This document shows, piece by piece, positions 2,705-55,894 of a stretch of 64,000 nt of DNA. The stretch covers positions 10,340 through 74,339 of the forward strand of contig JAJEHX010000032.1 of assembly GCA_022823465.1 (NCBI GenBank), given 5' to 3'. The notes beneath the pieces are model-generated. The model did no database searches. It was not told the DNA's origin and was given only the letters and a program-made list of their open reading frames with translations. The number at the start of each line of letters is the position of its first letter. The first letter of the stretch is position 1. This DNA comes from Candidatus Latescibacterota bacterium. GTDB taxonomy: Bacteria; JAAXHH01. The position numbers were made by a program, and so were the translations under genes.

Positions 2705-4405
2705 ATGCCCAGTTCCCGATTCGATCTCTCGGACCTCACCCCCGGCGTACTCGCCATCCTGGGCATTCTGGTCCTCTTCTTCGGCCTCTTCCTGTTCTAT
2801 CCGCTCCTGCACGTCCTGTTGAACGCCTTTTTCGCAGACGAACAGTTCTCCATCGAGTTCTTCGGACTGATGCTGCAGAGCCCGGTCCAGCAGCGCGCCC
2901 TGTTGAACAGCTTCGAACTGGGCATCGTCACCACCGCCCTGACGACCATCATCGCCCTGCCCATGGCCTACGCCCTGGTCCGGTACGATTTCATCGGCAA
3001 GGGCCTGCTGGGCGGACTCGCGCTGGTGCCCATGATCATGCCGCCCTTCGTAGGCGCCATCGGGATGAAGCAGATGTTCGCCCGGTTCGGCTCGATCAAC
3101 CTGTTCCTGCTGGAAACGGGACTCATCGACGCACCCATCGACTGGTTCGGAGGAGGCGGGTTCTGGGGCGTGGTGATCCTCGAAGCGCTGCACCTCTACC
3201 CCATCATGTACCTCAACATCGCCGCCGGACTGGCCAACGTGGACCCCAGCCTGGAGGAGTCGGCCCGCAACGTGGGCGCGGGGGGCTTCCGCCTGTTCCG
3301 CACCATCACGTTCCCGCTCATGCTGCCCGGATACTTCGCCGGCGCGATCATCGTCTTCATCTGGGCCTTCACGGACCTTGGCACGCCCCTGATCTTCGAA
3401 TTTCGCGAGGTGGTGGCCGTCCAGATCTTCAACATGGCCACCGACGTCCACGCGAATCCACTGGGATACGCCCTGGTCGTCTTCGTCGTCCTGGTCACGC
3501 TGGCGCTCTTCTACCTGTCCAAGAAGTTTTTCGGCGGCCGCCACTACGAGATGGTCGCCCGCGGACACGTGATGTCCGCCTCGCGGCGCGCTACGTCCCT
3601 CGAGACCGTGCTGATCTGGGGCATGCTCCTGTCCATCACGGGCATCGCGCTGATCCCCCATCTCAGCGTGGTCCTGACTTCCGTCACCGAGCGCTGGTTC
3701 ATGACCGTGCTGCCCTCCGACTACACTTTGGCCTACTACGGCCAGATCTTCGAGCATGACCTGACCCTGCTCTCCATCAAGAACAGCCTCTGGCTGAGCG
3801 TGATGAGCACCGTGATCGATATCGTCCTCGGCGTCGCCATCGCCTACCTGCTGACCCGGCGCCGCTTTCCCTTCAGGGACGCGCTGGACGCCGTGGCCAT
3901 GCTGCCCCTGGCCTTGCCCGGCCTGGTCCTCGCCTTCGGGTACATCTCCGGTTTTTCGGGAACCTTCCTGGACGTCCGCGTCTCCCCCGTTCCCCTGCTG
4001 ATCATCGCCTACGCCGTGCGCCGCCTGCCCTACATGGTCCGGGCGGCCTATGCCGGTTTCCAGCAGATGAGCGTGACCCTGGAGGAAGCCTCCATGAATA
4101 TGGGCGCCGGTCCCCTTCGGACGCTCTGGAAGATTACCATGCCGCTTGTACTCGCCAACGTGGCCGCCGGCGCCATCCTTTCCTTTTCCTTTGCCATGCT
4201 GGAAGTGAGCGACAGCCTTATCCTGGCGATCAAGGAACAGTACTATCCCATTACCAAGGCCATATACAGCCTCATGGGCCGCATCACCGACGGACCCTAC
4301 ATGGCCAGTGCCATGGGCATGCTGGGCATGATCCTCCTGGCATGCAGTTTGCTCTTTACAGGTAAAGTACTGGGGAAGAGAATGGGGCAGTTGTTCAAGG
4401 TGTAG
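2705..4405 (+). CDS. ABC transporter permease, duplicated two-domain (FbpB/iron(III)-type)
   Basis: 566-aa polytopic membrane ORF with two permease halves. Follows the ATPase by 22 nt. Confidence 0.85.
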   Translation: MPSSRFDLSDLTPGVLAILGILVLFFGLFLFYPLLHVLLNAFFADEQFSIEFFGLMLQSPVQQRALLNSFELGIVTTALTTIIALPMAYALVRYDFIGKGLLGGLALVPMIMPPFVGAIGMKQMFARFGSINLFLLETGLIDAPIDWFGGGGFWGVVILEALHLYPIMYLNIAAGLANVDPSLEESARNVGAGGFRLFRTITFPLMLPGYFAGAIIVFIWAFTDLGTPLIFEFREVVAVQIFNMATDVHANPLGYALVVFVVLVTLALFYLSKKFFGGRHYEMVARGHVMSASRRATSLETVLIWGMLLSITGIALIPHLSVVLTSVTERWFMTVLPSDYTLAYYGQIFEHDLTLLSIKNSLWLSVMSTVIDIVLGVAIAYLLTRRRFPFRDALDAVAMLPLALPGLVLAFGYISGFSGTFLDVRVSPVPLLIIAYAVRRLPYMVRAAYAGFQQMSVTLEEASMNMGAGPLRTLWKITMPLVLANVAAGAILSFSFAMLEVSDSLILAIKEQYYPITKAIYSLMGRITDGPYMASAMGMLGMILLACSLLFTGKVLGKRMGQLFKV

Positions 4406-4554
4406 AACCGACAAACCGGAAATCGCGTACTATATGGGAGAGCATGGAAGAGCTGAATCGGCCGGAATCGCGTCTCTGGCTGGCTGGATAGTCACGCAGT
4501 CACCGGGGAGCCACCGGCTACGACGGGTTAACCCTCAGCACGGCGGCGTGTATC

Positions 4555-5274
4555 ATGTCCACTTTCAATATGAATCCCAAACCCAGGCGTCAATCCGCGA
4601 TAGCCCGCATCCGCCAGAACATAAAGCGTACAATGGTGTCGGGCCTTATCGCGCTGGTACCCCTGACGGCCACCGTGGCCGTGCTGAGCTGGCTGCTGAC
4701 CTGGCTCGATTCCTTCGCGGCGCCGGTCATTCGCGGCCTGCTGGGCCTGGACACGCGCATACCCGGACTCGGGATCCTGCTTATGCTGGTCGTGATCTAC
4801 CTGGCCGGCTTCGTGGCATCCAACGTACTGGGCAGGAGGGTGATAGCCTGGTTCGAGGACCAGATCATGCGGCTGCCGGTCGCGCGGAGGGTATACCACA
4901 CGGTCAAGAAGCTGCTGGACACCTTCGCCATGGTGGGGGAGACGCGGGTCTGGAAGACGGTGCTGGTGGAGTATCCGCGGCGCGACGCATGGATGGTCGC
5001 TTTCATCGTCGGCGAATTCCCGAGTGAAGACAACGGGGAAGAACTGGCCAGCGTATTCGTGCCCAACACCCCTAATCCCGCGGCGGGACGTGTCGTAATC
5101 GTGCCGCGGCGGGACGTGATCCCCGTGGACCTGCCTGTCGAGGAGGCCCTGGAATTCGTCGTTTCGGGCGGGACGGCGCTCCGGAACGTACTTACCCTGC
5201 CATCGCTACGGCCCGGCGAGCGGACGGCACCCGCATCCGGGGATGAACAGACTGCACCTCCTTCCAGTGGCTGA
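4555..5274 (+). CDS. DUF502 family membrane protein
   Basis: 239-aa ORF. N-terminal basic stretch followed by TM helices (LIALVPLTATVAVLSWLL...), as recalled for DUF502 proteins. Confidence 0.7.
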   Translation: MSTFNMNPKPRRQSAIARIRQNIKRTMVSGLIALVPLTATVAVLSWLLTWLDSFAAPVIRGLLGLDTRIPGLGILLMLVVIYLAGFVASNVLGRRVIAWFEDQIMRLPVARRVYHTVKKLLDTFAMVGETRVWKTVLVEYPRRDAWMVAFIVGEFPSEDNGEELASVFVPNTPNPAAGRVVIVPRRDVIPVDLPVEEALEFVVSGGTALRNVLTLPSLRPGERTAPASGDEQTAPPSSG

Positions 5275-5467: not shown

Positions 5468-7024
5468 ATGTTTGAACTGGTCAACCTGATCAACCTGCTG
5501 GATATATTCATCATAGCGGCCTTGATCTACAGCCTCTACATGTGGCTGAAGGGCACGCGGGCCTATCATATCCTGATCGGCCTGGGCGGCCTGGGACTCT
5601 TCTACGGCATCGCGAATTGGAGCGGACTGCTCCTGACCAGCCAGATACTGCAATACCTCCTCGGTGTTATCCTTCTCCTGATCATTGTCGTCTTCCAGCC
5701 GGAAATCAGGCAACTGCTGGAGCGGGTCAGCCCCCTGGTCATTTTCAGGCTTCAGTCCAGTCCCATATCCCGGCGCATTCTGAAGGAGATCACCGAAGCC
5801 TGTTTCGAACTGTCGGAGAAACGCATCGGCGGCCTGCTGGTCTTCCCCCGGGCGACCGGGATCTCCGGAGTCGTACAGCATGGGGTCAAGCTCGACAGCC
5901 TTGTGAGCCAGGAACTGATCGTCAGTATCTTTCATCCATCTTCGCCGATTCACGACGGCGCGATTATCGTGGAGAAGGACCGTGTGGTCGAAGCCGCCAC
6001 CTATCTGCCGCTTTCGACCAGGGACCATCTTCCCCCCCGGTACGGCACGCGGCATCGGGCGGCCCTGGGCGTGTCGGAACTCGGTGATACGTTCTGCGTA
6101 GTGGTTTCGGAGGAAAGCGGCGAGGTGTCCGTGGCTTCCGGCGGTGACATCACGGCCGTGGCCGACCGGGAGAAACTATGGCAGATTCTGGAAAAATCAT
6201 TGCTGCCGATCGAGATTCCCCGGATCAGGCCGTCGCTGCGGGAGGCGGTGGAAAAAATCGTCGCTCTTCGGCCAGGATACCGGTTCAACCGCCGCAATCT
6301 TACCGCTAAACTGGCGTCCATCGGGTTGTCCTGCCTGCTCTGGTTCACCCTAATCGGTCAGCAAAGCTCCGAAAGAGCGATCACCGACGCGCTGGAGTTT
6401 CAGAACATCCCGACGAACATCGAGTTGATCAGCTATTCGACCAACGAGGTGAACGTATGGGTGCGGGGTACTGAAGGCAGTATCGCCTCGCTTACGGCGG
6501 ATCAGGTACGCGTAATGGTCGATTTGGAAGATATCGAACCCGGGACCCATACCATTGAGCTCACGGAAGCGAACGTTGAATTGCCTTTCGGTATCAAGGC
6601 CATCTCGATCGATCCGACAAGCCTCACCATCATGTCCGATCGAATCGTGAGCAGACGAATCATGATCGATCACGAATTGACGGGCAAACTCCCGGAAGGC
6701 CTGGAAATCGCACGCGTCACCGTGGAACCGCCCTCGGTGCCGATAACAGGCCGTGAAATGGAAATCGACCAGATCGAGCGAGTGGTGACTTCGCCCACGA
6801 TCGAGCTTTCCGAACTTACCGCCAGCCGGATCTTCGATTGCCGGCTGAAGATCCTTCCGCAGGACCTGTCCTATACCTCCTTCAGCATCGAGGACCGTGA
6901 GGTCAGGGTCCATATCGATCTGCAACCCGTCGGAGCGGGTCGGTCGGCCGAGGAGGCGGACAGCCCGGCGCAGTACGTATCTTCCCTGCAGGCAAGCCCG
7001 GATAACCGGCTTGATTCACCTTGA
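5468..7024 (+). CDS. cdaA: Diadenylate cyclase CdaA fused to YbbR/CdaR-like repeat domains
   Basis: Three N-terminal TM helices. DAC motifs HDGAIIV and GTRHRAALGVSE. Then an extra TM (LASIGLSCLLWFTLIG) and YbbR-like beta repeats, all in one 518-aa ORF. Confidence 0.8.
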   Translation: MFELVNLINLLDIFIIAALIYSLYMWLKGTRAYHILIGLGGLGLFYGIANWSGLLLTSQILQYLLGVILLLIIVVFQPEIRQLLERVSPLVIFRLQSSPISRRILKEITEACFELSEKRIGGLLVFPRATGISGVVQHGVKLDSLVSQELIVSIFHPSSPIHDGAIIVEKDRVVEAATYLPLSTRDHLPPRYGTRHRAALGVSELGDTFCVVVSEESGEVSVASGGDITAVADREKLWQILEKSLLPIEIPRIRPSLREAVEKIVALRPGYRFNRRNLTAKLASIGLSCLLWFTLIGQQSSERAITDALEFQNIPTNIELISYSTNEVNVWVRGTEGSIASLTADQVRVMVDLEDIEPGTHTIELTEANVELPFGIKAISIDPTSLTIMSDRIVSRRIMIDHELTGKLPEGLEIARVTVEPPSVPITGREMEIDQIERVVTSPTIELSELTASRIFDCRLKILPQDLSYTSFSIEDREVRVHIDLQPVGAGRSAEEADSPAQYVSSLQASPDNRLDSP

Positions 7025-7058
7025 CTCAGAGATATCCCCCGGTCTATAATCCCAACTC

Positions 7059-8063
7059 ATGAGCAACGCCGTTTCGATCCGGTCATGGGCGGGGAGGATA
7101 TCTTGCGCCCTGGCCCTTTCAGCCGCTTCAGCATTCACGAACACGGGATCCACCTTCGGAATTACGCCGGAGGATGTACCGAACGGGACTGAAGTACCGG
7201 TCGAAGAGGCACATCCGGTTGCGTCGGCTGCCCGGGAAACCTCCTCCGACAGGGCCGAGGCGCCGTCCGCCGGATCAATCGCGCGTCGTGGGGAAATCCG
7301 GATACGCGCCCGTGCCGCGCTCGTGATCGATATCCAGAAGGGGGAGGTGATCTACCAGAAGAATGCCACGTCGCCGTTCCCGATCGCGAGTATCACGAAA
7401 CTGATGACCGCGGTGACCTACATGCGGATGAATCCGGATCTTGAAAAGAGCGTCCGTATCACCCGCCAGGACGTATACCGGGCGAACTGGACGAAACTCA
7501 GGTACCGGGAACAGGTCTCGGCGATGGATCTGCTATACGCCACCCTCGTCGCCTCGGACAACGCGGCGGCGCGCGCACTGGCACGCGCGTCGGGCCTGAC
7601 CATGAAAGCATTCGTGGGCCGCATGAATGAAACGGCGGCCTCCCTTGGCCTGTCGAACTCCCGTTTTACCGAGCCCACCGGACTGGACGCGGGCAATGTA
7701 TCCACGGCAGTGGATTGCGTAGCCCTACTCTGGACCGCCTTGCAGGATGAATTACTGTCGGAAATCCTGCTGGCCAGGGAGTATAAGTTCGGAACGAACA
7801 GGCGCACGCATACTATTCGGACTACCAACCGGCTGGTGCGCGATACGGTATCTGAAAGACAATGGGAAGGTGTCGGGAGCAAGACCGGCTATATCCGCCG
7901 GGCCGGATACTGTCTCGTCATGCGGGCGCTCGGCGATTCGGGCGATGATATCTACGCCGTTATTCTCGGCGGACCGACCAGCCGGACCCGGTTCACGGAC
8001 ATGCAGCGCCTGCTGGACTGGAGCATGAAGGACGGCGATCGGCCCGGGGGCGTCGACGGGTAG
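7059..8063 (+). CDS. D-alanyl-D-alanine carboxypeptidase (peptidase S11, PBP5/6-like)
   Basis: Signal peptide. SxxK (ASITKLM), SxN (ASDNAA) and KTG (SKTGY) motifs in the canonical order. Confidence 0.85.
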   Translation: MSNAVSIRSWAGRISCALALSAASAFTNTGSTFGITPEDVPNGTEVPVEEAHPVASAARETSSDRAEAPSAGSIARRGEIRIRARAALVIDIQKGEVIYQKNATSPFPIASITKLMTAVTYMRMNPDLEKSVRITRQDVYRANWTKLRYREQVSAMDLLYATLVASDNAAARALARASGLTMKAFVGRMNETAASLGLSNSRFTEPTGLDAGNVSTAVDCVALLWTALQDELLSEILLAREYKFGTNRRTHTIRTTNRLVRDTVSERQWEGVGSKTGYIRRAGYCLVMRALGDSGDDIYAVILGGPTSRTRFTDMQRLLDWSMKDGDRPGGVDG

Positions 8064-8133
8064 GGGTATTGCAACGAAAACGCATGAACCGCATCCGACG
8101 GGACGCGGTTTCAGCAGCACGCAAGGAGAAAGT

Positions 8134-8301
8134 ATGCTGGCGACGATTGGTTTCAGCGTGATTGGTACGATCATCCTGGGTCTTGTCGCGATCGGCCTGG
8201 TATACCTCATGGCCCTCGCGGGAGGCGGCCAGCGGGTACGCGCGTCCGGGCGCCGCGCAGGCGGCGGAGGGCGGCCCGGACGGCCCGGTGGTCGCAGATG
8301 A
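8134..8301 (+). CDS. Small hydrophobic protein (55 aa), absent from the ORF track
   Basis: SD-like AAGGAGAA lies 4 nt upstream of the ATG. One TM helix (MLATIGFSVIGTIILGLVAIGLVYLMAL) plus a Gly/Arg-rich tail. The stop overlaps the next gene start as ATGA. Confidence 0.5.
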   Translation: MLATIGFSVIGTIILGLVAIGLVYLMALAGGGQRVRASGRRAGGGGRPGRPGGRR

Positions 8302-9008
8302 TTGGGGGTTTGCCTAAGGTGACCTCCTTTCGAAGATGCGTGACCGGCCTCCTGCTCTGCGGCCTCGCCTCCGGGTGGACGCATGGCGAAGGGGAAGCCG
8401 CCGAAAGCGAAAACGGCAGGCTGACCATTGCGCGGATGAAGTACGACGGAGGAGGCGACTGGTACAACGATCCCGAGGCGATTCCCAACCTGGCCCGGGA
8501 ACTGCAACTGCGCGCGGGCATCGAGACGAATCTGGATCAGCGTGTCGTTACCCTGACCGACGACCAGTTGTTCTCTTCACCCGTCCTATTCATGACCGGC
8601 CACGGCGAGGTGAAGTGGACCGAGCCGGAAGTCCGGAACCTGCGCAAGTACCTGACACACGGCGGATTCCTTTACGCCGATGACGACTACGGCATGGACA
8701 GGGCATTCCGCAGGGAAATGAAAAGAGTCTTTCCCGGCCAGGAATTCGTCGAATTGCCGTTCACCCACCCGATCTACCACATCATCTACGATTTCCCGTC
8801 CGGCCCGCCCAAGCATCACGAGCACGACGGCAAGCCGCCCCAGGGGTTCGGACTCTTCCACGACGGACGCCTGGTGGTGTATTACACGTACGAAAGCAAC
8901 GTCAGCGACGGCTGGGCCGACGAAAAGACCCACAATGATCCGCCGGCGAAACGAGAAACCGCCTTTAGAATGGGGATCAACATCATCGCCTACGCGCTCT
9001 ATCATTGA
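8298..9008 (+). CDS. DUF4159 domain-containing protein
   Basis: 236-aa ORF with a signal-like N-terminus. Segment ARMKYDGGGDWYNDPEAIPNL, as recalled for DUF4159. Confidence 0.65.
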   Translation: MIGGLPKVTSFRRCVTGLLLCGLASGWTHGEGEAAESENGRLTIARMKYDGGGDWYNDPEAIPNLARELQLRAGIETNLDQRVVTLTDDQLFSSPVLFMTGHGEVKWTEPEVRNLRKYLTHGGFLYADDDYGMDRAFRREMKRVFPGQEFVELPFTHPIYHIIYDFPSGPPKHHEHDGKPPQGFGLFHDGRLVVYYTYESNVSDGWADEKTHNDPPAKRETAFRMGINIIAYALYH

Positions 9009-9136
9009 CGCGATAACCCCATGGGGATATACTGAAACCCGGAAGACGAATCGAACGTCTAAACCGTCAGAAGGCCTTTCGTCCGGCGTAACCGCAGATC
9101 AAAGATCCTCGAAGGATCCAGAAAAGGAGTACCATC

Positions 9137-9475
9137 ATGAACCTCTGGCAAACGATTAAGTCTGAATTGGACGGACCGATCGAAACCGTCCGGAAAAGTC
9201 TGTCCGGCGCGCTGGACATGGCAGAAGATCTCACGCGGAAAGGGCGGATCAAGCTGGAGATCCAGTCGGCCCGGGCCGATATCCGCAACCAGCTGACCGA
9301 ACTGGGCGGCCGCGTCCACCAGATCGTGGTCGAGGACGGCATCACCGACGTGTCGGGAGATACCGAGGTGACGGGCATCCTGGACCGCATCAAGGAGCTG
9401 CAGGGGAACATAGCGGACCGCGAAGAAGAACTGCGCCGCGAGAATGCGGAAGGCACCGAGAAGAAAGCCTCCTGA
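9137..9475 (+). CDS. Hypothetical coiled-coil protein
   Basis: 112-aa charged helical ORF. SD-like AAAGGAG upstream. A terminator hairpin lies downstream. Confidence 0.6.
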   Translation: MNLWQTIKSELDGPIETVRKSLSGALDMAEDLTRKGRIKLEIQSARADIRNQLTELGGRVHQIVVEDGITDVSGDTEVTGILDRIKELQGNIADREEELRRENAEGTEKKAS

Positions 9476-11971: not shown

Positions 11972-13471
11972 ATGGACCACAATACGCCTGATGCATATAT
12001 AGCCTTCGACCGGGTCACCAAGCGGTTCCCTGGTGTGACGGCCCTTGACGAGGTGACCTTCGGGATCGAAGCGGGTACCTGTCACGCCGTGGTCGGCGAA
12101 AACGGCGCCGGTAAAAGTACACTTGGGCGGATACTGACCGGTATCTACGGAATGGACGGCGGCCGGATACGCGTGGACGGCCAGCCCGTGCAGTTCTACG
12201 AACCGCGGGACGCCCTTGATCTGGGGATCGGCATGGTCCACCAGGAACTCGCGTTCTGCGAGAACCTGTCCGTCGCCGAAAACCTCTGCCTCGGCGCCCT
12301 GCCCGGCGGGGGAGGGTTCGTCTCCGATCGACGGATGGAAGCCCGGGCCCGGCAAATGCTGGAGGCGGTTGAAGCCGATCTGGACGTGGGAACGCCCATT
12401 GGCGATCTGCCCGTCGCCCAGCAACAACTCGTGCAGATCGCTGCGGCCCTTGGCAGCGGCGCCCGCGTGATCGTCTTCGACGAACCGGCCAGCAGCCTGT
12501 CCCACGTGGAAGCGGAACGGTTGCGAGCGCATATCCGGCGCCTCAAGGCGAAGGGCGTGACGTCGATCTACATTTCCCACGACCTGGACGAGATCTTCCG
12601 CCTTTGCGACGCCGTGACGGTGCTTCGCGACGGCCGGCACGTGGCTACCCGCCCGGTCGCCGACCTCGACCGGGCCACGCTGATCAACCTGATGATCGGG
12701 CGTACTTTCGAAGCCTACTTCCCGTCTCACGTGGAGACCGAACCCGGTGACGAGATGCTTTCCGTGGACCGGCTCGCCAGTCCGGGGAAATTCGACAACG
12801 TGTCTTTCTCCGTGCGGTCCGGGGAAGTACTCGCCCTGGCCGGCCTGGTGGGCGCGGGACGGACCGAAGTGCTGCAGGCCGTGTTCGGGCTGGACCCCAT
12901 AGCCGCGGGGCAAATACGTGTCCAGGGCCGGCCGGTGAGCATCCGGCATCCGATCGACGCGATGCGAAGGGGCATCGGGCTCGTGCCCGAAGACCGCAAG
13001 CGATTCGGTCTCGTCCTTTCGCTTCGCGTGGAACAGAACATAGGGCTGCCCACCCTGGACCGCCGCTCCGGCTTCGGGTGGATCCGCGGAAAAAGGGAAG
13101 AAGACCTGGCGCGGGAATATGTCAAACGGCTATCGGTGCGGCCGGACGACGTCCGGTATGAAACGGCGGGCCTGTCGGGCGGGAACCAGCAGAAGGTGGT
13201 CCTGGCCAAGTGGCTGGCCGCCCGATGCCCGGTCCTCCTGATCGACGAACCCACCCGGGGCGTGGACGTGGGCGCCAAGTCGGAGATGCACGCCCTGATC
13301 GACCAGCTGGCTCATGAGGGCACGGCCATCGTGCTCGTGTCGAGCGAATTGCCGGAGGTGCTCAACCTGTCGACGCGGATCCTTGTGCTTCGATCCGGGC
13401 GTATCGCGGGGGAACTGTCCCGCGAAGAAGCGGACCAGGGCGCGGTGATGCGAATGATGGCGGGGGTGTGA
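11972..13471 (+). CDS. Sugar ABC transporter ATP-binding protein, two fused ABC domains (RbsA-type)
   Basis: Walker A GENGAGKST and GLVGAGRTE. Signature LSGGNQQKVVLAKWL. Confidence 0.9.
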   Translation: MDHNTPDAYIAFDRVTKRFPGVTALDEVTFGIEAGTCHAVVGENGAGKSTLGRILTGIYGMDGGRIRVDGQPVQFYEPRDALDLGIGMVHQELAFCENLSVAENLCLGALPGGGGFVSDRRMEARARQMLEAVEADLDVGTPIGDLPVAQQQLVQIAAALGSGARVIVFDEPASSLSHVEAERLRAHIRRLKAKGVTSIYISHDLDEIFRLCDAVTVLRDGRHVATRPVADLDRATLINLMIGRTFEAYFPSHVETEPGDEMLSVDRLASPGKFDNVSFSVRSGEVLALAGLVGAGRTEVLQAVFGLDPIAAGQIRVQGRPVSIRHPIDAMRRGIGLVPEDRKRFGLVLSLRVEQNIGLPTLDRRSGFGWIRGKREEDLAREYVKRLSVRPDDVRYETAGLSGGNQQKVVLAKWLAARCPVLLIDEPTRGVDVGAKSEMHALIDQLAHEGTAIVLVSSELPEVLNLSTRILVLRSGRIAGELSREEADQGAVMRMMAGV

Positions 13472-13531
13472 TTAAGAAAGAGAAAAACCGCCAACCAGTA
13501 CAAATCTCAGTAAGTTTAAGCGCAGGTGCAA

Positions 13532-14281
13532 TTAGTCATGAGGGACCAAAAGTTGGTAATCATTACTACTCATTGGTTCATGTTTACCCCAATCGCCCCG
13601 CATTTCGATCAAAACACGTTGTTTCAGAAATGCGGTGTTGGAATTCATGCGTGCTACTTCTGCTTCGAACATGCCATGTGAGTTAGCCATAGCCTTGGTC
13701 AAGTCATGTACCAAATATCGAGGCGCCCATCCAATCATGTGATAGTCTGTCGTTTGAATCTGAACCGCTAACTGAGTTGCAGGATTGGTCAGTTCTAACG
13801 TAACATACAACTCTTCTTCTTCACTTAGTCTATTCAACCGAGTTTTTGCTTCTTCATTGATGTATCGCCAACCGTGTAAGAAAAACCTGCAGGTAAATCT
13901 CCCGTCTGCGTGCTTTGTGATTTTTGGAAAAACTTCGTAGGTATCTGTAACCCGGGAGCCACCATTTCTGGCCAGGATCTCGATGGGATTTGCCTTCTCT
14001 GGTAAATCCAGACTTTTCAGATAGTCAGAAAAATCCGGCCTTGCGGGATTCATCACTCTGTTTTTAAAAAGTGGAAATAACTCCGAAGAACGATAGTCTC
14101 CTTTTAAATCAGGAAAATCCAGTAAAGGAGTAAATCCTTCTTTCTTTGCTTTTTTGGCGCCTTTGATATAGCGAAATCGATACAATGATTGTTCGACATT
14201 CGCATCGAGCTGGCCCACCGGAAACCATGCGCGGCTAGGATTTCTGTCTTGCCAAGCCAGAAACAAAGTTTTCTCACTCAT
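13532..14281 (-). CDS. HipS-like (HipA N-subdomain-like) / HIRAN-like fusion protein, putative antitoxin partner of the upstream kinase
   Basis: The N-terminal half resembles the HipA N-terminal subdomain (LFLAWQD..WFPVGQL..YRFRY ... LFPLFKNRV ... ILARNGGSRVTD). The C-terminal half is HIRAN-like (LELTNPATQLAVQI...HMIGWAPRYL). AGGAG lies 9 nt upstream of the ATG. The start overlaps the upstream reading frame as ATGA. AT-rich. Confidence 0.65.
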   Translation of the reverse strand: MSEKTLFLAWQDRNPSRAWFPVGQLDANVEQSLYRFRYIKGAKKAKKEGFTPLLDFPDLKGDYRSSELFPLFKNRVMNPARPDFSDYLKSLDLPEKANPIEILARNGGSRVTDTYEVFPKITKHADGRFTCRFFLHGWRYINEEAKTRLNRLSEEEELYVTLELTNPATQLAVQIQTTDYHMIGWAPRYLVHDLTKAMANSHGMFEAEVARMNSNTAFLKQRVLIEMRGDWGKHEPMSSNDYQLLVPHD

Positions 14282-14484
14282 GCTGATAACTCCTGTAACA
14301 TGCTGATGCTATAGTCCAACTGATCGGTCATAAATTTTCGACCTAAACTAGATATCCAATCGTCGGGTAATTGTTTAGGTAGGTTGAGAATTGACCCCTT
14401 GTCCAATTCCTTGATTCGTTGAAGTGCAGGGCGAAAAAACTCGGGATATGCATCAACCTGACCGTCTGACCAATTCGATAGGGC
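14278..14484 (-). other. Out-of-frame C-terminal continuation of the kinase (+1 frame)
   Basis: The open frame reads ..SDGQVDAYPEFFRPALQRIKELDKGSILNLPKQLPDDWISSLGRKFMTDQLDYSISMLQELSA and has no start codon of its own. Its TGA overlaps the ATG of the downstream gene. Confidence 0.6.
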
Positions 14485-15181
14485 TCATGCCACGTGTGTC
14501 AGATTCAGACCAGTATATGGCTCCAGGCGCTCTTTCAACGTACGGACCAATTTGGTTGTTGGCGAATAGCCTTTCACGCTTTGTGTCACTTAGTTCTCGA
14601 CCTAATGACGAGGCATGGTCATACGTGGGAGCTAAATCCACAACAACTTTACCATCAGACAATTGTAATAGCAATCCCCAGTTCTCGTGGTGCCTATCAG
14701 TATTGCCTATGATTGCATCAAGAATCAAGTAGTCCGCAAATCGACATTTTGTTGATTTCGCTTTTGCTGAATCATGTAGTGCTGATAGTACTGAGTCTAA
14801 AGCTTTCCAGATATTCTCCAGGGTATGGCTGGATTGACCGAACTTCTTGTTTGGATCATAACTTCGCACCGCCGACTCAAGTAACTGATTCCCATGGATC
14901 AAAACCGTGCCAATGCCGACATTTGTAAACGATCTTGTTGTGGATCCCTTTCTTCCTTCAAAGACCGCTAACTCTACTATGGCATGTTCAATGCCAAGAA
15001 TCTCCGCAACTTCGGCTGCTATCTTTTCTGCCCAATGTTCCCCGGAGTCTCCTCGTGGATACTTGAACAACAAATTACCAGAGTCCGGATTGTTATACCA
15101 GAACTTGCGTTTGCTACCCATGTCTTCGGACTCACGCTCCCATTCACTCTTCACTTCCACAACAGTGAATTCCCCAGACAT
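14453..15181 (-). CDS. HipA-family Ser/Thr kinase core (no N-subdomain 1); reading frame broken near the 3' end
   Basis: Catalytic-loop motif DAIIGNTDRHHENWG and Mg-binding LAPTYDH. ATG at 15181 with AGGTGG 8 nt upstream; the ORF track gives an alternative GTG at 15193. The ORF stops at 14453 but coding clearly continues in another frame. Confidence 0.75.
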   Translation of the reverse strand: MSGEFTVVEVKSEWERESEDMGSKRKFWYNNPDSGNLLFKYPRGDSGEHWAEKIAAEVAEILGIEHAIVELAVFEGRKGSTTRSFTNVGIGTVLIHGNQLLESAVRSYDPNKKFGQSSHTLENIWKALDSVLSALHDSAKAKSTKCRFADYLILDAIIGNTDRHHENWGLLLQLSDGKVVVDLAPTYDHASSLGRELSDTKRERLFANNQIGPYVERAPGAIYWSESDTRGMSPIELVRRSG

Positions 15182-15273
15182 TGGAGTTACCACCTATACT
15201 GGCGCTAAGAAAACCATGGAATCTGGAGCGTCTACGAAAACAGGTGTAAAAAAGTTGCGACATTGTCCGTTGT

Positions 15274-15302
15274 ATTATACGAAAAACAGGCATCTAAGTC
15301 CA
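15274..15302 (-). promoter_or_regulatory. Sigma70-like promoter candidate for the kinase operon
   Basis: On the minus strand: TGGACT, 17 nt, TATAAT. It lies about 90 nt upstream of the kinase start, in an AT-rich spacer. Confidence 0.25.
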
Positions 15303-15373
15303 TACCATGTTCTAAACTTAGATTCCATTAGGACATCAAGTACAGAAACATGGTTAATGTTGAATTTATCAGC

Positions 15374-16189
15374 TCAACCCCGCCTCCCCGGCGCGGCCGC
15401 CACGCCTTCCATGCCGCCGCTCACCCGCAGCACTTCTCCGGTGATCCAGCCCGCAGCGGGGCTGCACAGGAACGCCACCCCGTTGGCGATGTCCTCCGGC
15501 TCGCCCCACCTGCCGAGCGGAATGGCGCCTCGAATCCGTTCGATCATCTCTTCTTCGGTAAGTCCCAGGGTCTTGCTGCGCTGCGCCATGTTCGACCGGT
15601 TGAACTCGGTGTAGACGGGGCCGGGGCAGACGGCGTTCACACGTATCCCGTACGCCGCAAGTTCCAGTGCCAGGGTTCGTGTGAGACTGATGACGCCTTC
15701 CTTGGCTACGTTGTAGGCCGCCACCAGGGCCGCCGGATTCTGTCCGTTGATGGATGAGATGTTCACGATGGCGCCCGATTCCTGCCCCTCCATGATCCCG
15801 CCCGCGGCCCGGCAGCAGTAGAAGGTCCCGGTCAGCGTGACCCGGATGACACGGTCCCACTCTCCGTCGTCCAGTTCGACCACCGGCGCTACCTTCTGGC
15901 CGACCCCGGCGTTGTTGACCAGGATGTCGATTCTTCCGTGCGCTTCGGCGACTTCACCGAAGAAGGCGTTTACCGAGGCGCTGTCCGAAACGTCCAGGTA
16001 CCCGGGAACCGCCGCCAATCCCAGCTCACGGAGTCTCCCGGCCTCCTCCTCGGCCTTCTCGCGCTGCAGATCCGCCATCACCACGGTCGCGCCGTTGCGC
16101 GCCAGCCGCTCCGCTATACCCAGGCCGAGCCCCTGGGCCGCGCCGGTCACGACGGCTACGGCCCCGTCTATACGATGTGGGTCGTCCAT
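15374..16189 (-). CDS. SDR family oxidoreductase (FabG-like)
   Basis: TGxxxGxG (VTGAAQGLGLG), NNAG, and YxxxK (YNVAK). Confidence 0.9.
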   Translation of the reverse strand: MDDPHRIDGAVAVVTGAAQGLGLGIAERLARNGATVVMADLQREKAEEEAGRLRELGLAAVPGYLDVSDSASVNAFFGEVAEAHGRIDILVNNAGVGQKVAPVVELDDGEWDRVIRVTLTGTFYCCRAAGGIMEGQESGAIVNISSINGQNPAALVAAYNVAKEGVISLTRTLALELAAYGIRVNAVCPGPVYTEFNRSNMAQRSKTLGLTEEEMIERIRGAIPLGRWGEPEDIANGVAFLCSPAAGWITGEVLRVSGGMEGVAAAPGRRG

Positions 16190-31601: not shown

Positions 31602-32288
31602 TCAACGCAACGGGACGAGTCCAAGCTCAACCCTGTCCAGATCACCGGGCGTGACGCGGGGCGGATGGTTGATCTGGAAATTGGGTCCCGATATCGTCCT
31701 GGTACCGCTCACCAGCACGCGCCGGTCAAACGTCAGCGCCCGAATATGCAGGGCATGCCATTGAAACGACCGGGGCATCCGGTTCATTCGGAAGTACATC
31801 CGGCGATGTCGGTCCTGCCGGATCTCTCCACACAACGCTCCATCCCCGCTGACGAAAAAGGGCGCGGGGGCTTTGCGGGTCGCAGCCGTAATCGCCGTAT
31901 CCGGGTGAACGGCCTGAGAGGTACGCGAGGCGGGCTTGCCTGAACTCCCTTCCGAGGCGGGGGACCTTGAGGATTCTACCGCGTTCGGATGGCGTACGCT
32001 AAGCACATACCAGATCACACGGATAAGGGAATCGGGATAGGACGAGGCCTCGGATTCTTCCAGCCATCGCAGTTTGTCCCCGCAATCGAGACAGATCTCC
32101 AGATGCCTGTTCAAGGTCTCTCTCTCGCAGATGGAAAGCTCCTTCGGGTCTTCATAGAAGATCACCAGCATTTCCGACGAAGGACAGGAAGACAGCAGCG
32201 GCTCGCTGAATCTGCGCAGGAGGTCAGCGATCTGAGTACGATCTGGCAACCTGCCGACGTTGCCGCGCTCCGCAACTCGCTGATGCAT
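31602..32288 (-). CDS. Anti-sigma factor candidate with ZAS (HxxxCxxC) motif
   Basis: HLEICLDC motif. Starts 2 nt after the sigma gene stop, with AAGGAG inside the sigma 3' end. No clear TM helix. Confidence 0.55.
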   Translation of the reverse strand: MHQRVAERGNVGRLPDRTQIADLLRRFSEPLLSSCPSSEMLVIFYEDPKELSICERETLNRHLEICLDCGDKLRWLEESEASSYPDSLIRVIWYVLSVRHPNAVESSRSPASEGSSGKPASRTSQAVHPDTAITAATRKAPAPFFVSGDGALCGEIRQDRHRRMYFRMNRMPRSFQWHALHIRALTFDRRVLVSGTRTISGPNFQINHPPRVTPGDLDRVELGLVPLR

Positions 32289-32290
32289 GA

Positions 32291-33076
32291 CTACTCCTTT
32301 TTATTGGTTTTGGGACGTCGAATACCTTCACAGACGCAGTTTGTAAAGTGTTCGTAATCCCTGAATCTGCTCTGCATTTTACGTCTGAGTCGATACATGC
32401 AGTCATAAATCATCTGTCCCATGCGTTGCACGGACACCCCAAACACCTCCGCGATGTCCTCCCTGCTCAGTTCTCCTTTCAGTTCCCTGACGTACATTTT
32501 CAGGACGTCCCGGCATCTCGGGCCCGTGTAGTATTTCAAGGCTGTATGCAACAGGAATACCTGCTCTTCTTCCTCCATCACCCTGAAAAACCGGTCCGGC
32601 CTGTTGTTGGGATCGGTGTCTTCAAGCTGCAGCCCCGACTCGCTGCTCGCCGCAAACCAGTCTATGTCGACGAATTTGATGCCCCTCCCCCGGGCGACGC
32701 CGAGGCGCGAAGGCATGGCGTCAAGACACTTGATCTTCGCAATACGGGTAATATAGGTGCTCAACGCACTGCGGAATTCGAATTGTGGAAGGCTCTGCAT
32801 GACTGCGATGTATATATCATTAAGGATATCTTCCTTTTCGCCTGCCGGAATCCAGTAAGCTTTCTGGTAGACCCAGAAGTGGACCGGCTTATCCGGTGTA
32901 AAATACAGATCGTAGAGTTGGCTCTGCGCATCCGATCGACCCTGCAGACAAGCGTGTATCAGATTTATGTCCCCTGCCCTTTTTGAGTGCGTGTTCATAG
33001 TCGCAACGAGAATACCTTTCCATTGAAAGCGCCTGAATCCAAAGGACTGCCCAGGCGCAACGGGTGCATCCGGCAT
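32291..33076 (-). CDS. Sigma-70 family (ECF-like) RNA polymerase sigma factor
   Basis: Region 2-like (DILNDIYIAVMQSL) and region 4 HTH (SREDIAEVFGVSVQRMGQMIYDCMYRLRRKM). The start is uncertain; an alternative ATG lies at 32998. Confidence 0.7.
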   Translation of the reverse strand: MPDAPVAPGQSFGFRRFQWKGILVATMNTHSKRAGDINLIHACLQGRSDAQSQLYDLYFTPDKPVHFWVYQKAYWIPAGEKEDILNDIYIAVMQSLPQFEFRSALSTYITRIAKIKCLDAMPSRLGVARGRGIKFVDIDWFAASSESGLQLEDTDPNNRPDRFFRVMEEEEQVFLLHTALKYYTGPRCRDVLKMYVRELKGELSREDIAEVFGVSVQRMGQMIYDCMYRLRRKMQSRFRDYEHFTNCVCEGIRRPKTNKKE

Positions 33077-33705
33077 AGCGGGACCTCCGGGCTCGGAGTG
33101 TCCGGTAACGAAGGTTCCACCGCCCTATCGCGGTAATCGGACCGTCAGGTCAAAGCCCTGCCGGTTCCAGGATAGGGTGCCGGTAATCGACTCGTCTAAT
33201 TGGAACACTGAAATCGAAGGCTGCTTCATCCACGGCCGATGCGGACGCAACAGCGTTCTGTCTTTACTTCCTGAGGCGGTAGATGGTACACGCCTGAATG
33301 CATCGAAGGGCAGACCGGAAACCCGGGTGCTGCGTGTTCTTCGTATTGCAAAACCGGTGACAGCCCCGTGGCGCCTCATCGTGGCGGACCGGTTTCAGAT
33401 TCAGTACGGCGTATCCCGGAACAGTGAGGTGAACTGCAGATCTTTTACCCTCTGGTCGCTTTGATCAGCCGTATGTTCTGATTTGAGAAATGCTCGTGTT
33501 GGGTTGCATACTCAACTGAAAATGTACACGTGTGCAGTAACGGCGAGCATAGTTGATTTCAATTGACTTAAAGGAACAGTCGAGAAAGTGAGCGTAAATC
33601 TCGTATAAAATCTAAAATATTGACATTACATCGTGGAATTTTACCTTATCCTCTAAATCAATAACTCGTTGCAACTACGAAAGATCGTTGAACTGAGAGA
33701 CAAAC

Positions 33706-34887
33706 TTGCCCAAAGTCCCATCGTCTTATGAAAAGGGTTATGAGCAGGCCAGGTCCCTGAATCCGCAATTCGCCGACAATTACATCAGGCACACCATGAT
33801 CGGCGACGAAGACCTGGATCCGGTGATGGAAGACATGTCGGGCATGCCCCCCGGCGAGATGCACAAGTATATCCACGCCGGCCTGCACCAGGAAGAGGAC
33901 GCATTTAAAAAGGCGCCCGAATCCCTGCAACGCTACTTCCGCGAAGTCGATACGATCATTCCGGAATGGGTCGAGTTCGAAGCCTTTCGGCCCGCCGTGG
34001 TCGGATTCCACAAGAACATGCCGGAGATTCTCGTAGCCTTCGTGACCGCGGCCCTGCTGGAAGGATTCACGACGCTCATCAGCAAGTCCTTCTACCTGAC
34101 GGGGCGGGTCCATTCCGACCAGGCTACCCGTCGATTCAAGCAGAACAACCGTCACCTGCTGGAGATATTCCTGCCCGGCGGCCTCCGGCGGGAAGGGGAC
34201 GGCTACCGGCTCTCCGCCCGTATCCGGTTCGTGCACGCCATGGTGCGCCACTTGTTGAAGGACTCCGATATCTGGGATACCCAGGCATGGGGCACGCCCT
34301 TGAGCGCTGCCCATATAGCCCTGGCGGTCAGTATTTTCTCCGCGCAGATCCTGAAGCATTCGATCTCGCTGGGCGCTGTCTACACGCCGGAGGAACGAGA
34401 GAGCTTCGTAAAGGTCTTCCGCTACACCGGATATATCATGGGCGTACCGGAGAGCATTCTCATGAAGGACGAGGATGAAGCCCGGACGACCGTAGATATG
34501 GGCTTCATGTGCGAACCCCCTCCCGACGAACACTCGATCGCGAACGCGAACGCCCTGATCAAGGCCGGCCCATCCCTGTTGAATATCACGGATCCGGGCG
34601 AAGTGGCCGCCGCCCTCAAGACCCTGTACAATATCTCCCGTGCGCTGCTGGGGCACGAACTGGCCGACGCGCTGCACTACCCGAAGAGCAGGACCTTCGG
34701 AGTCCTGTTTGCCCATCGCATGAAGAACCGGATCAGCCGGGTAAAAAACCAGTTGTTGAGAACGCGGGGCCGTCAGACGAAGCTGGACAATTTCTCGCAG
34801 ATGCTCCAGCTTTCGGCTTACGACGAAGTCGGCATGAGCTACCGGATGCCCGATCGTGTCAAGGCTTCCGAATCCAGCAAATGGTAG
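33706..34887 (+). CDS. MpaB/DUF2236 family oxygenase-like protein
   Basis: 393-aa ORF with RIRFVHAMVRHLL, as recalled for DUF2236. TTG start, uncertain. Confidence 0.6.
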   Translation: MPKVPSSYEKGYEQARSLNPQFADNYIRHTMIGDEDLDPVMEDMSGMPPGEMHKYIHAGLHQEEDAFKKAPESLQRYFREVDTIIPEWVEFEAFRPAVVGFHKNMPEILVAFVTAALLEGFTTLISKSFYLTGRVHSDQATRRFKQNNRHLLEIFLPGGLRREGDGYRLSARIRFVHAMVRHLLKDSDIWDTQAWGTPLSAAHIALAVSIFSAQILKHSISLGAVYTPEERESFVKVFRYTGYIMGVPESILMKDEDEARTTVDMGFMCEPPPDEHSIANANALIKAGPSLLNITDPGEVAAALKTLYNISRALLGHELADALHYPKSRTFGVLFAHRMKNRISRVKNQLLRTRGRQTKLDNFSQMLQLSAYDEVGMSYRMPDRVKASESSKW

Positions 34888-53493: not shown

Positions 53494-53608
53494 ACAAAGC
53501 TTAGGTTGGGAGTTACAAGTAGGTAAAATCAGAAATACACAATTGCTGTTCAGGCAGTACGAATTCGTAATGATCAGATGGTTCCATAGAGAAAAACCAC
53601 ATCGAGTT

Positions 53609-53977
53609 CTAGTTATTGAGCCGATCCTGATTGTCTGTTAGTACCTGTTCGAGTAACTCCAGATCCTCGCAGACAGCGTTCCACCCAGTACGCCAGCGAG
53701 AATCAAGTGACTCACTCGGCTGAAACAATGAACGCGATTTTGATAAGACCGATGTGCAGATCTGTAGGATTTCTGAGGCTATAGGATCCTCAGACTGCAT
53801 GCGTGTGATGTCTTCCGGCATCAAAGGCTCGGAGACACCCGCCCGCGCCGCCGCCAATTGACCTACACTTAGAACAGACCGCTTCAGTCTTGCTCGTGAT
53901 GCATAAGCAGAATCAATGTCCTCTACTGAACCTTTTGTAAACGCGATCAGACGAAGGCAATCGTTCAGGTCTGGCAT
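53609..53977 (-). CDS. Small acidic hypothetical protein (cassette gene C)
   Basis: 122 aa. GGAGGG lies 9 nt upstream of the ATG. The start overlaps the tail of the NTase ORF by 65 nt. AT-rich. No His residue, so no HEPN RX4-6H motif. Confidence 0.6.
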   Translation of the reverse strand: MPDLNDCLRLIAFTKGSVEDIDSAYASRARLKRSVLSVGQLAAARAGVSEPLMPEDITRMQSEDPIASEILQICTSVLSKSRSLFQPSESLDSRWRTGWNAVCEDLELLEQVLTDNQDRLNN

Positions 53978-54653
53978 AAACCAATCCCTCCAGTTTACTG
54001 AGCATTTTACTCATAATATCAATCACGTGCTCTACGTCGTTTCTTGAAACCTGATCTAGCACGCCACATTTTCTCTCCTCAAACAAGCGGAATGAGTGTG
54101 CTAGTTGTAGTTTGCTCAAAACCTCGGGCATCTCAAGAAACACCGCTGCCCGGGTGATACAATCCCTGCCAAAAGTTGGAACCCCTACCAAATAGCAAGC
54201 GAGAACTGAGGCATGTCTCGCAACGCCTCCAAGCACTGCAAGCTCAAAACACGGCGGCAGTCCAGCAGCTAAGCCAGATTGGACATCATTTATAATAGAT
54301 CTGAATCCCTTTAAATCACGACCAGCCAACTGATATGGCGGAAGCGAACCTAGTAATTTGGACATGCGTGCGTGAGCATCCCCTTCGTAGAGCAATGTTG
54401 ATGCCTCATTTGCTATGTGGTGAAGAAATAGGGATCCATATCTACTCATGGACTCTATTTCCTCCCAAGTATAGTGACTGATCTGTAGCAGATCCTTAGG
54501 CAATTCAGGAACCAAAGCGGCGATTTCGTCCACATTCGGCATATCGTGAGCAACCGTTAGTACATCGATATCACTGAAACGGTCGGCATCACCTCGGGCG
54601 CGAGAACCGTAGAGTATAATGGCACGACATTGAGTCATCGTTTGAACATCCAT
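53913..54653 (-). CDS. Pol-beta/MNT-type nucleotidyltransferase with helical C-terminal domain (cassette gene B)
   Basis: LYGSRARGDADRFSDIDVL (GSxxRG...SDxD). About 150 aa of helical C-domain, like the KNTase_C/HEPN-like layout. An alternative ATG at 54638 forms ATGA with the upstream stop. Confidence 0.75.
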   Translation of the reverse strand: MDVQTMTQCRAIILYGSRARGDADRFSDIDVLTVAHDMPNVDEIAALVPELPKDLLQISHYTWEEIESMSRYGSLFLHHIANEASTLLYEGDAHARMSKLLGSLPPYQLAGRDLKGFRSIINDVQSGLAAGLPPCFELAVLGGVARHASVLACYLVGVPTFGRDCITRAAVFLEMPEVLSKLQLAHSFRLFEERKCGVLDQVSRNDVEHVIDIMSKMLSKLEGLVYARPERLPSSDRVYKRFSRGH

Positions 54654-55558
54654 CGCACCAGCAGTGTAATCAATAAACCGAACGATACGAATCCCAAAAA
54701 TGCTTCAATCGTTAGTATGATGCGTGCAAGTGTACCAGTTGCACTTACGACATTAACCGAATCTACGGATATAAACGTCGCCACGCTCAACCAAATGACA
54801 TCACTAATACCTAATGGTTCTGACGACTGATTCAACGAATCATGAACAAACCAGAGTAAGAGAGGGAATACGAGAAACGCCAGGATAACTATATTTCGGA
54901 TAAGGATTATTGGCTTTTCACCATGCCCCCAAACTATATCATAGAAGTAGCTTGTGATGAGTTGAGCAAATGCAGAGAGCCTGCGTAAACCGGAGTAATG
55001 GCGTCGATACCATTCGCTCTTGCTTACAATAGCCGCTTTTAGGTGTTCTTTCTTAGCTTGTATAGCTGCTAGACGGTATTTGCGCCTGTCATTCTGAAGT
55101 CCAATGGCGTCCGAAGCGATCGCCAATCTGTCCGCCAATTCTTCGCGGAGATTTGGCTCTCGAGGTAATGAATGTTCCATTTCATCAAATGGTAACACAC
55201 AGTTTTCGAATCGAGAATACCTAAAATCGCATGACTGTACTATCACCTTTGGAAAATCGCAACTTAGGAACTTGCAACCAACAAACGTGCTTCCAGTCAG
55301 TTCCGATTTTCTAAAGTAACAACTCAAAAACGCACAGTTTATGAAACGACAGTTTCTGATATCTGCTTCCTTAAAACTCACATTGGCAAACGTACAATGT
55401 TGAAATTCAAGATTCTCAAGTGTACTGCAATCTTTGCGATCGGCAGCAAAGATCAGATCATGAGCCGGCGTTGTTGCTACTGGCCAGTCTCCAGTTTTTC
55501 TACCTACGATATACTCATCTGATCCAATCATATTTCCAACTCTTCCGATGCAGAGCAA
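54635..55558 (-). CDS. Pentapeptide-repeat protein fused to a 2TM ion-channel-like pore domain (cassette gene A)
   Basis: 16 consecutive pentads with a hydrophobic residue (mostly Phe) at every fifth position. C-terminal TM1, pore-helix and TM2 layout with ISVDS in place of a K+ filter. The ORF track gives a TTG start; an alternative ATG lies at 55531. Confidence 0.75.
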   Translation of the reverse strand: MLCIGRVGNMIGSDEYIVGRKTGDWPVATTPAHDLIFAADRKDCSTLENLEFQHCTFANVSFKEADIRNCRFINCAFLSCYFRKSELTGSTFVGCKFLSCDFPKVIVQSCDFRYSRFENCVLPFDEMEHSLPREPNLREELADRLAIASDAIGLQNDRRKYRLAAIQAKKEHLKAAIVSKSEWYRRHYSGLRRLSAFAQLITSYFYDIVWGHGEKPIILIRNIVILAFLVFPLLLWFVHDSLNQSSEPLGISDVIWLSVATFISVDSVNVVSATGTLARIILTIEAFLGFVSFGLLITLLVRWMFKR

Positions 55559-55726
55559 AATGCTAAGCTACTTGCTGGACTCCTCGGAACTTTATACGAA
55601 TCGAACATTTGCATACCCGTCAAGATGAAATCGACACTCTACCTCGTGAGTCTCAGGAATAATCAAGTACAATTTGTTTGCTTAGTCAACCGTCAGCTTA
55701 ATTGTAAGAAATATCGCAATATCAAG

Positions 55727-55894
55727 GCAGAACGCTCCATCGGAACCCTCAAATACGAGGAGGTCTACCTCCACGAGTATGAGCCATTGGAATATGTCCA
55801 TTCACATACCGATTAATCCATCGACAAACTCTACAATCGTAATCGCTTGGACTCGTCCTTTGACTACAAACCACCTGCCGAGTACGAGCAAATT
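55727..55894 (+). pseudogene. IS3-type transposase C-terminal remnant
   Basis: AERSIGTLKYEEVYLHEYE...(TAA)...IDKLYNRNRLDSSFDYKPPAEYE resembles the end of rve-type IS3 transposases. In-frame stop at 55814-55816. No upstream catalytic part. Confidence 0.6.

Follow-up and report, generated by a model that had tools for sequence, protein, structure and literature searches.

The stretch of DNA analysed here (the window) comprises 64,000 nt of contig JAJEHX010000032.1, from a bacterium assigned to Candidatus Latescibacterota. On its minus strand it carries a compact cassette of two genes, hipI and hipN, which we read—with a probability of roughly 60%, and by analogy with related Hip kinases—as a hotspot-borne toxin–antitoxin (TA) or abortive-infection module of the hipIN type (PDC-M03 in PADLOC), whose kinase is broken in this genome. 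In hipIN, as described by Gerdes, Baerentsen and Brodersen (mBio 2021; PMC8262856), a short kinase without N-subdomain 1 (HipI; 279–321 aa) precedes HipN, in which a HipS-like domain is joined to a HIRAN domain. The same study defined Hip families by their genetic context, and judged by context the window cassette is hipIN-type.

Cassette boundaries and the HipA-type kinase

The cassette (1,902 bp, two minus-strand genes; Table 1) is sharply bounded at both ends, filling exactly the interval that separates the stop codons of a pair of convergent core genes, which encode an ATP-binding cassette (ABC) transporter ATPase and a short-chain dehydrogenase (SDR). Its GC content lies at 0.42–0.47 (43% overall, against 65%) compared with 0.60–0.67 in the flanks, and GC content at third codon positions (GC3) falls from 0.78–0.85 in the flanking genes to 0.42–0.44 in the cassette genes. 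The cassette was acquired horizontally by a high-GC uncultured bacterium whose nearest metagenome-assembled genomes (MAGs) are labelled Latescibacterota or Gemmatimonadota. The two genes leave just 192 nt free on their upstream side and 60 nt on their downstream side, so that a third gene for a helix-turn-helix (HTH) protein does not fit; a profile search detected no HTH domain in either cassette protein. An Rfam scan of the cassette matched no family, and no terminator-like site was found in a scan of the same interval.

The two adjacent proteins match both models of PDC-M03, a HipA plus HIRAN-domain protein system, with E-values of 8.7e-74 (PDC-M03A, kinase) and 2.3e-82 (PDC-M03B, spanning the full length of HipN). 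Relatives are numerous, with ~2,500 for HipN and ~2,900 for the kinase at E ≤ 0.001 (~1,370 clusters at 50% identity).

The kinase open reading frame (ORF) as it stands (14453–15193, minus strand) contains the motifs GNTDRHHENWG and LAPTYDH. Translation from the ATG at 15181, which is preceded by AGGTGG, yields 242 aa as present and 300 aa once the frame is repaired. The product matches Pfam HipA_C (E = 1.1e-10) and, owing to the frameshift described below, covers only positions 2–243 of the 302 in PDC-M03A. Alignment with hhalign places D162, N167 and D188 opposite D309, N314 and D332 of E. coli HipA, i.e. at two catalytic positions (D162, N167) and the Mg-binding position (D188). The Gly-rich loop (E19–W28, EDMGSKRKFW, with Ser19 and Ser23) is situated at the very N-terminus; therefore, the kinase lacks the HipA N-subdomain 1.

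An AlphaFold2 (AF2) model of the intact kinase allele P0271 (mean predicted local distance difference test score, pLDDT, 88.7) found its best Foldseek matches in CtkA, followed by HipA and HipT. CtkA of Helicobacter pylori (JHP0940; 3akj/3akk/3akl) is the closest hit in both sequence (phmmer E = 4.5e-7) and structure (Foldseek E = 5e-14, TM-score (TM) 0.77–0.82 along the entire length, with the C-terminal helices that are missing here included). CtkA differs in being described as a secreted proinflammatory kinase with no HipS–HIRAN partner, and identity is only 16–19%. Within the hipIN-A lineage, the ratio of non-synonymous to synonymous substitution rates (dN/dS) was 0.22–0.28 for the kinase and 0.10–0.18 for hipN, revealing purifying selection on both genes.

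In the repaired kinase frame, and only there, hipI and hipN overlap by 4 nt (ATGA, 14278–14281). An earlier note, drawn up from the letters of the window, had described a HipA core without its N-terminal subdomain, a reversed gene order (kinase first, HipS–HIRAN second), ATGA coupling and the lack of an HTH antitoxin gene. Our profile and structure searches agree on the first two points and the cassette layout on the last, whereas the coupling holds with the qualification that the kinase frame has to be repaired.

Disruption of the kinase reading frame

The frameshift implied in the earlier note is real: compared with its relatives, which have a single G, the kinase gene carries one extra G on the coding strand (GG here; CC on the plus strand). 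As a result, the last 58 codons (residues 243–300) are out of frame and run on to the ATGA overlap, and helices 246–299 of the predicted kinase fold would be lost. In contrast, ten related hipIN loci all lack the extra base and all ten have an intact kinase. An intact 300-aa allele from a sister sample (P0271, locus L091) is 99% identical to the window kinase; between the two cassettes there are seven substitutions, four of them in the kinase, plus the extra base.

With the protein ending at residue 242 and its C-terminal helices gone as a result of the insertion, the toxin is most likely dead here, and hipN survives as an orphan partner. We are confident that the kinase gene is a recent pseudogene. 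The window copy, which has a stop at 14453–14455 in place of the intact kinase gene of hipIN, is a decayed member of that family and not a family of its own.

The probability left over is shared between assembly error and recoding. Under either, the module would still be functional: the extra base would be a sequencing or assembly error, or ribosomes would pass over it by +1 frameshifting at GGU UGA. We regard this as distinctly unlikely. It is true that the insertion is a single base within a GG dinucleotide, that hipN and the out-of-frame kinase tail are undamaged (the four kinase substitutions being the only ones relative to L091), and that skipping one base after GGT restores the frame at the cost of a single V-to-G change. 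However, the same base occurs in two assemblies otherwise identical to the window (L009 and L010), namely an ENA metagenome scaffold and the Logan assembly of SRR16351695, whose agreement makes an assembler artefact unlikely, with the proviso that both may derive from the same reads. Programmed frameshifting was rejected in turn: as the base is absent from the ten related loci, this is not a conserved recoding site; GGU_UGA offers no +1 re-pairing potential or slippery context, and inspection of the upstream sequence revealed no Shine–Dalgarno-like stimulator.

The HipN partner and its two domains

HipN is intact, and AF2 modelled it with high confidence (pLDDT 95, predicted TM-score 0.91). 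Foldseek matched the model to 7vkb_B (E = 1.3e-3, TM 0.75 normalised to the 102-residue target), the HipS chain of the Legionella HipT–HipS complex (PMC9325769). Since Foldseek gave no aligned residues, the match is placed in the N-terminal half of HipN on the strength of Pfam and hhalign. In an alignment of 88 full-length family members, reaching down to 32% identity, Couple_hipA (the HipA N-terminal domain) matched 32, with a best E-value of 3.5e-7, always at residues ~20–108 and collinear with the profile. Searches of PDB sequences, with the single sequence as well as with a profile, matched HipN to HIRAN entries and to neither HipS nor HipA; consequently, the HipS-like assignment draws on the fold search and on the Pfam matches in relatives, with the hhalign comparison given below as a weak third line.

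The C-terminal half is recognised directly, by Pfam HIRAN at residues 130–221 (E = 8e-8, 32.4 bits against a cutoff of 24.7), by a sequence-profile match to 3k2y (Lactobacillus lp_0118) and the HLTF HIRAN domain, and by Foldseek, which returned 3k2y (TM 0.72–0.79) and several HLTF HIRAN entries with E-values of 8e-5 to 1e-3. Across the HLTF/Rad5 and lp_0118 domains the fold is the same (Foldseek probability 1.0, target-normalised TM 0.57–0.79), and the N-P, G-x-x-P-R-Y and Arg-Tyr/His elements are shared; in HipN the retained residues are R139-Y140, G184 and P187-R188-Y189. Unlike HLTF, HipN has no helicase or RING context. Both halves had been proposed in the earlier note, a HipS-like segment followed by a HIRAN-like C-terminus. 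As for the domain profiles it named, HipA_C and HIRAN were detected in the window proteins, whereas Couple_hipA was detected in relatives.

In the HIRAN domain of HLTF, Asp94 binds the 3′-OH of the DNA, with Tyr72 and Tyr93 acting as a clamp on the terminal bases (PMC5773155). Profile alignment sets the N-P-x-D motif of the HipN family opposite N-P-Y-D of HLTF, and Y140 of the window protein is present in the R-Y motif (again by profile alignment only). Nucleic-acid binding by the HipN HIRAN domain is therefore plausible as far as sequence goes, whereas HLTF-like recognition of a 3′-OH in the window clade is not supported, for the reason given next.

Several observations weigh against the reading of the cassette as a hipIN-type TA or abortive-infection module. 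On the HIRAN side, the window HipN has Ala168 and Thr169 (NPAT) where HLTF has Tyr93 and Asp94, as judged from sequence profiles only; NPAT is also found in close relatives, and across the family the motif Asp is kept in 44 of the 88 members while 24 have Thr instead. The window clade may accordingly not recognise 3′-OH ends in the manner of HLTF, and a strict 3′-end-sensor interpretation is weakened. On the HipS side, the window HipN has no Couple_hipA match at E ≤ 1 in the Pfam search, and the hhalign comparison of its family profile (residues 8–120) with HipA (5–106), though collinear and inclusive of the LFPLFxNR/FNFFDNLLP segment, is weak (E = 0.056). With its kinase truncated, the module probably does nothing toxic in the window genome. 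More generally, toxicity, neutralisation and defence are attributed to hipIN by analogy throughout; PADLOC lists PDC-M03 as an unvalidated phage-defence candidate only, and viral contigs yielded no HipN relatives (a search with two peptide patterns only, and of limited sensitivity).

Relation to known systems

The cassette resembles hipIN in its HipA core, its short kinase without N-subdomain 1, the Ser next to the Gly-rich loop and the lack of an HTH antitoxin; at 300 aa, the repaired kinase falls inside the size range of HipI. It differs in being frameshifted, in its NPAT instead of NPxD motif, and in its host, labelled Latescibacterota or Gemmatimonadota, whereas the published HipI list comprises Actinobacteria, Firmicutes, Proteobacteria and Cyanobacteria. 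The architecture is already catalogued (hipIN, PDC-M03); the host phylum is one that the 2021 survey did not give for HipI.

HipBST of E. coli O127:H6 and Legionella pneumophila likewise has a split HipA, and the HipN N-domain resembles the Legionella HipS as described above. In HipBST, however, the order is hipB–hipS–hipT, the operon includes the HTH protein HipB and the antitoxin lies upstream of the kinase, as is also the case in HipBA; in the window the order is reversed, HipB is missing and the HipS-like domain is fused to HIRAN. The modelled kinase is, moreover, structurally nearer to CtkA than to HipT. HipL comprises the same three domains in the same N-to-C order, but as a single polypeptide from a monocistronic operon, whereas in the window two proteins are encoded by genes parted only by the 4-nt overlap (in the repaired frame). 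Actinobacterial HipA–HIRAN clusters were reported in 2025 to adjoin a gene for a deoxydinucleotide nuclease, the link being left for investigation (PMC11706625); the window cassette has no such third gene.

The earlier note had correctly stated that Hip-kinase operons with HipS–HIRAN partners had been predicted, namely hipIN (PMC8262856), and had named no experimental characterisation. Our literature searches likewise found no experimental work on hipIN, HipL or PDC-M03; all that they returned was the 2021 phylogeny, mentions in annotations and the association with a nuclease gene in Actinobacteria. The note's suggestion of a DNA-end sensor controlling the kinase coincides with the published hypothesis and is not something that the sequence itself reveals; the NPAT motif weakens its strict 3′-end form.

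Variable cargo at the SDR–ABC site

One genome per species was scanned for relatives of the adjacent SDR gene. The survey gave 15 syntenic loci (L011–L025) with an SDR identity of 87–97% and the SDR–ABC gap about 6810–9200 in each, in MAGs labelled Latescibacterota, Gemmatimonadota or plain 'bacterium' (chromosomes of 3.7–3.9 Mb). The SDR–ABC intergenic space varies among them. Four loci (L013, L015, L021, L022) have an empty site of 43–65 bp, and L016 retains a 108-bp remnant, part of which resembles the DUF6338 cassette at its left end. The latter, ~1 kb with one DUF6338 gene, occupies the site in L012, L017, L023 and L024. Other cargoes are a 2-kb insert whose DUF5131 fusion matches the models PDC-M41B and PDC-M41A of another PADLOC defence candidate (L014), and a 2.3–2.4-kb insert of three genes, including one for a DUF7689 protein (L020, L025). 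hipIN alleles near that of the window reside in L018 and L019, as well as in L001, L003, L004 and L091 from other collections, while L011—the closest relative by its flanks—contains a divergent hipIN allele (3577–5226; kinase 50% and HipN 68% identical). At least three hipIN alleles are represented at the site. All cargoes have a GC content of 0.41–0.45, against 0.61–0.66. None of them encodes a recombinase, and neither att-like nor shared terminal repeats were seen at the cassette borders across cargo types.

Similarity of the cassette is discordant with that of the flanks. In L011, the flanks are 95–97% identical to the window (SDR 97%, ABC 95%), yet the cassette is divergent, which implies replacement of the cassette and not descent. 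The reverse is observed for L018, with flanks of 86–90% identity, yet a cassette 94–96% identical to that of the window. Between the window and L091, there are 8 differences in the 1.9-kb cassette vs. 59 in the 1.5-kb ABC ATPase gene (about 99.6% and about 96% identity, respectively), suggesting that the cassette has recently spread or recombined among strains. This discordance indicates that cargo is exchanged at the SDR–ABC site; homologous recombination in the core genes on either side would be the simplest means. Vertical inheritance, as first read from the similar synonymous divergence (dS) of cassette and flanks, was rejected on the evidence of L011, L018, the empty sites and L091.

The gene pair with its 4-nt overlap is also kept in L006, L008 and L011, which share only ~50% kinase identity. 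In L006 and L008, it adjoins genes for type I restriction-modification, AAA_15/DUF3226 and VapBC. L007, in contrast, contains an orphan hipN homologue (8001–8744; 65% identical) of near-host GC content (0.60 vs. 0.625), flanked by genes for tetratricopeptide repeat (TPR) proteins and with neither a kinase gene nor a kinase remnant within 8 kb. Given this orphan and the frameshift in the window, the toxin gene appears to be lost first, and the patterns fit an accessory conflict system that decays in this order.

The same distribution bears on a reading of the pair as a DNA-damage signalling device, separate from TA or defence, in which the HIRAN protein brings a regulatory, non-toxic kinase to damaged DNA. 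HIRAN domains occur in eukaryotic proteins of DNA repair, the nearest kinase of solved structure, CtkA, is no classical TA toxin, and a nuclease gene adjoins the actinobacterial HipA–HIRAN clusters (PMC11706625). Yet a module that is patchy and hotspot-borne, being present, absent or replaced among close relatives, that is low in GC, and that readily loses its kinase, as in the orphan hipN of L007, displays the traits of accessory conflict genes and not those of housekeeping repair; in addition, the specific fold match of the HipS-like domain is to a protein known to inhibit a kinase. We consider DNA-damage signalling very improbable.

Promoter candidate and inverted repeat

Upstream of the kinase, a consensus scan identified a sole σ70-like promoter candidate (15302–15274), whose –35 element is overlapped by an inverted repeat (Table 1). 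Palindrome and –10 element together form the best-conserved upstream block in six alleles, the rest of the upstream region being divergent. The repeat is kept in hipIN-A and A2 alleles while adjacent bases diverge (L001 4953–4992, L019 6868–6897, L091 3856–3893), and was not found upstream of the divergent hipIN alleles in L006 and L011. The repeat has the look of an operator. As the operon encodes no HTH protein, the HipI–HipN complex or the HIRAN domain would be the obvious candidate binder, although this is speculation prompted by the sequence.

Taken further, HIRAN could be the DNA-binding autoregulator of the operon in place of HipB, and the cassette an addiction-type type II TA system serving its own maintenance. 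The missing HTH protein and a conserved palindrome over the –35 element of the only promoter candidate suit this idea, as does the exchange of the 3′-OH-binding Asp of HLTF for Thr in the window clade; the closer match of window and L091 in the cassette than in the flanks would fit a selfish recombining element. Against it, the binding targets of those HIRAN domains that have been studied are ends or structures of DNA and not specific duplex sequences (PMC5773155; PMC8262856), the divergent alleles in L006 and L011 are without the palindrome, and both the neighbouring cargo and the neighbours at other loci are defence-type genes. On balance we find an autoregulatory addiction module unlikely, and continue to prefer a hipIN-type TA or abortive-infection cassette.

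A further proposal, which we rate as a rather long shot, combines two elements: that the HIRAN domain of the window clade, having lost the HLTF-type 3′-OH pocket, may bind the –35 palindrome of its own operon in a sequence- or structure-specific manner that replaces HipB, and that at least five interchangeable low-GC cargoes, the cassette among them, swap at a recombinase-free hotspot between the two convergent core genes. If true, the SDR–ABC hotspot would be a compact natural system for studying the turnover of defence cassettes by flanking homology.

Proposed mechanism and implications

In an intact hipIN-type module, HipI would be the toxic effector, a growth-arresting Ser/Thr kinase that, like HipA and HipT, would phosphorylate an essential translation factor, e.g. 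an aminoacyl-tRNA synthetase. Translationally coupled HipN would keep HipI inactive via its HipS-like domain, as was proposed for hipIN (PMC8262856). In HipBST, HipS sits on HipT at the site of the HipA N-subdomain 1, where it locks the Gly-rich loop and excludes ATP (PMC10627512; PMC9325769), through Trp65 in E. coli (PMC10627512) or a loop-to-helix switch in Legionella (PMC9325769). By analogy, HipN's HipS-like domain may replace the missing subdomain and block the Gly-rich loop and ATP site. The fused HIRAN domain would provide nucleic-acid binding. According to the published proposal, it may recognise phage DNA ends and set off abortive infection (PMC8262856); DNA structures arising from phage infection or DNA damage might be sensed in this way, freeing the kinase. 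In addition, the domain may act as a tether or an autoregulator of the operon, standing in for HipB.

hipIN/PDC-M03 is widespread and represents the simplest case of a HipS-type kinase inhibitor fused to a nucleic-acid-binding domain; owing to this fusion, it could reveal how a DNA signal is linked to a toxin of the HipA family. With its broken kinase, the window copy contributes little to answering that question. Its value lies elsewhere: in a matched pair of intact and frameshifted alleles with seven other differences, in a well-delimited hotspot whose empty and alternative-cargo states support the role of an accessory conflict system, and in the occurrence of the NPAT HIRAN variant together with a conserved palindrome.

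Other features of the window

Table 1. Features of the cassette, its flanks and other parts of the 64,000-nt window (positions refer to the window).
Feature	Position	Strand	Basis or remark
ABC-transporter ATPase, high-GC core gene	11972-13471	+	left flank, convergent
Low-GC cargo cassette	13472..15373	.	GC, GC3; same site empty or otherwise filled in related MAGs
hipN-type gene, 249 aa, intact, putative antitoxin or sensor	13532..14281	-	PDC-M03B full length, AF2 model
HIRAN domain, ~125-235 of HipN	13577..13909	-	Pfam, profile and fold matches; NPAT for NPYD
HipS-like domain, ~1-122 of HipN	13916..14281	-	Couple_hipA in relatives, Foldseek, hhalign
hipI-type HipA-core kinase gene, disrupted	14278..15181	-	HipA_C, PDC-M03A, frame analysis, intact allele P0271
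1-nt insertion site	14457..14458	-	DNA alignments with L001, L003, L004, L005, L091
Sigma-70-like promoter candidate (TGGACT, 17-nt spacer, TATAAT)	15274..15302	-	consensus scan, 10/12 matches
Inverted repeat, possible operator	15289..15326	.	GGAATCTAAGT, 16 nt, ACTTAGATGCC; arms 15289-15299 / 15316-15326
SDR, high-GC core gene	15374-16189	-	right flank, convergent
228-aa ORF	31602-32288	-	unassigned, in the GC dip
261-aa ORF in GC dip	32291-33076	-	sub-threshold Sigma70_r2 match
Nucleotidyltransferase-domain ORF in second island	53913-54653		weak PDC-S09 and PDC-M05A matches
Pentapeptide-repeat/ion-channel-like ORF in second island	54635-55558		
Type II DNA methyltransferase in second island	56346-57386		

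A second low-GC island (GC 0.42–0.49) extends over positions 53600–58550 of the window, about 1.3 kb from a gene for tRNA-Arg(CCT). Judging by the sizes of two of its ORFs (53913–54653 and 54635–55558), we had suspected a second hipIN copy; they encode a nucleotidyltransferase and a pentapeptide-repeat protein instead. Two unassigned ORFs (57383–58542) that follow the type II methyltransferase gene could specify its restriction partner. The adjoining tRNA-Arg(CCT), called by ARAGORN at 59876–59973, is unusually long for a bacterial tRNA (98 nt). A milder GC dip (0.52) was noticed at positions 32000–34000.

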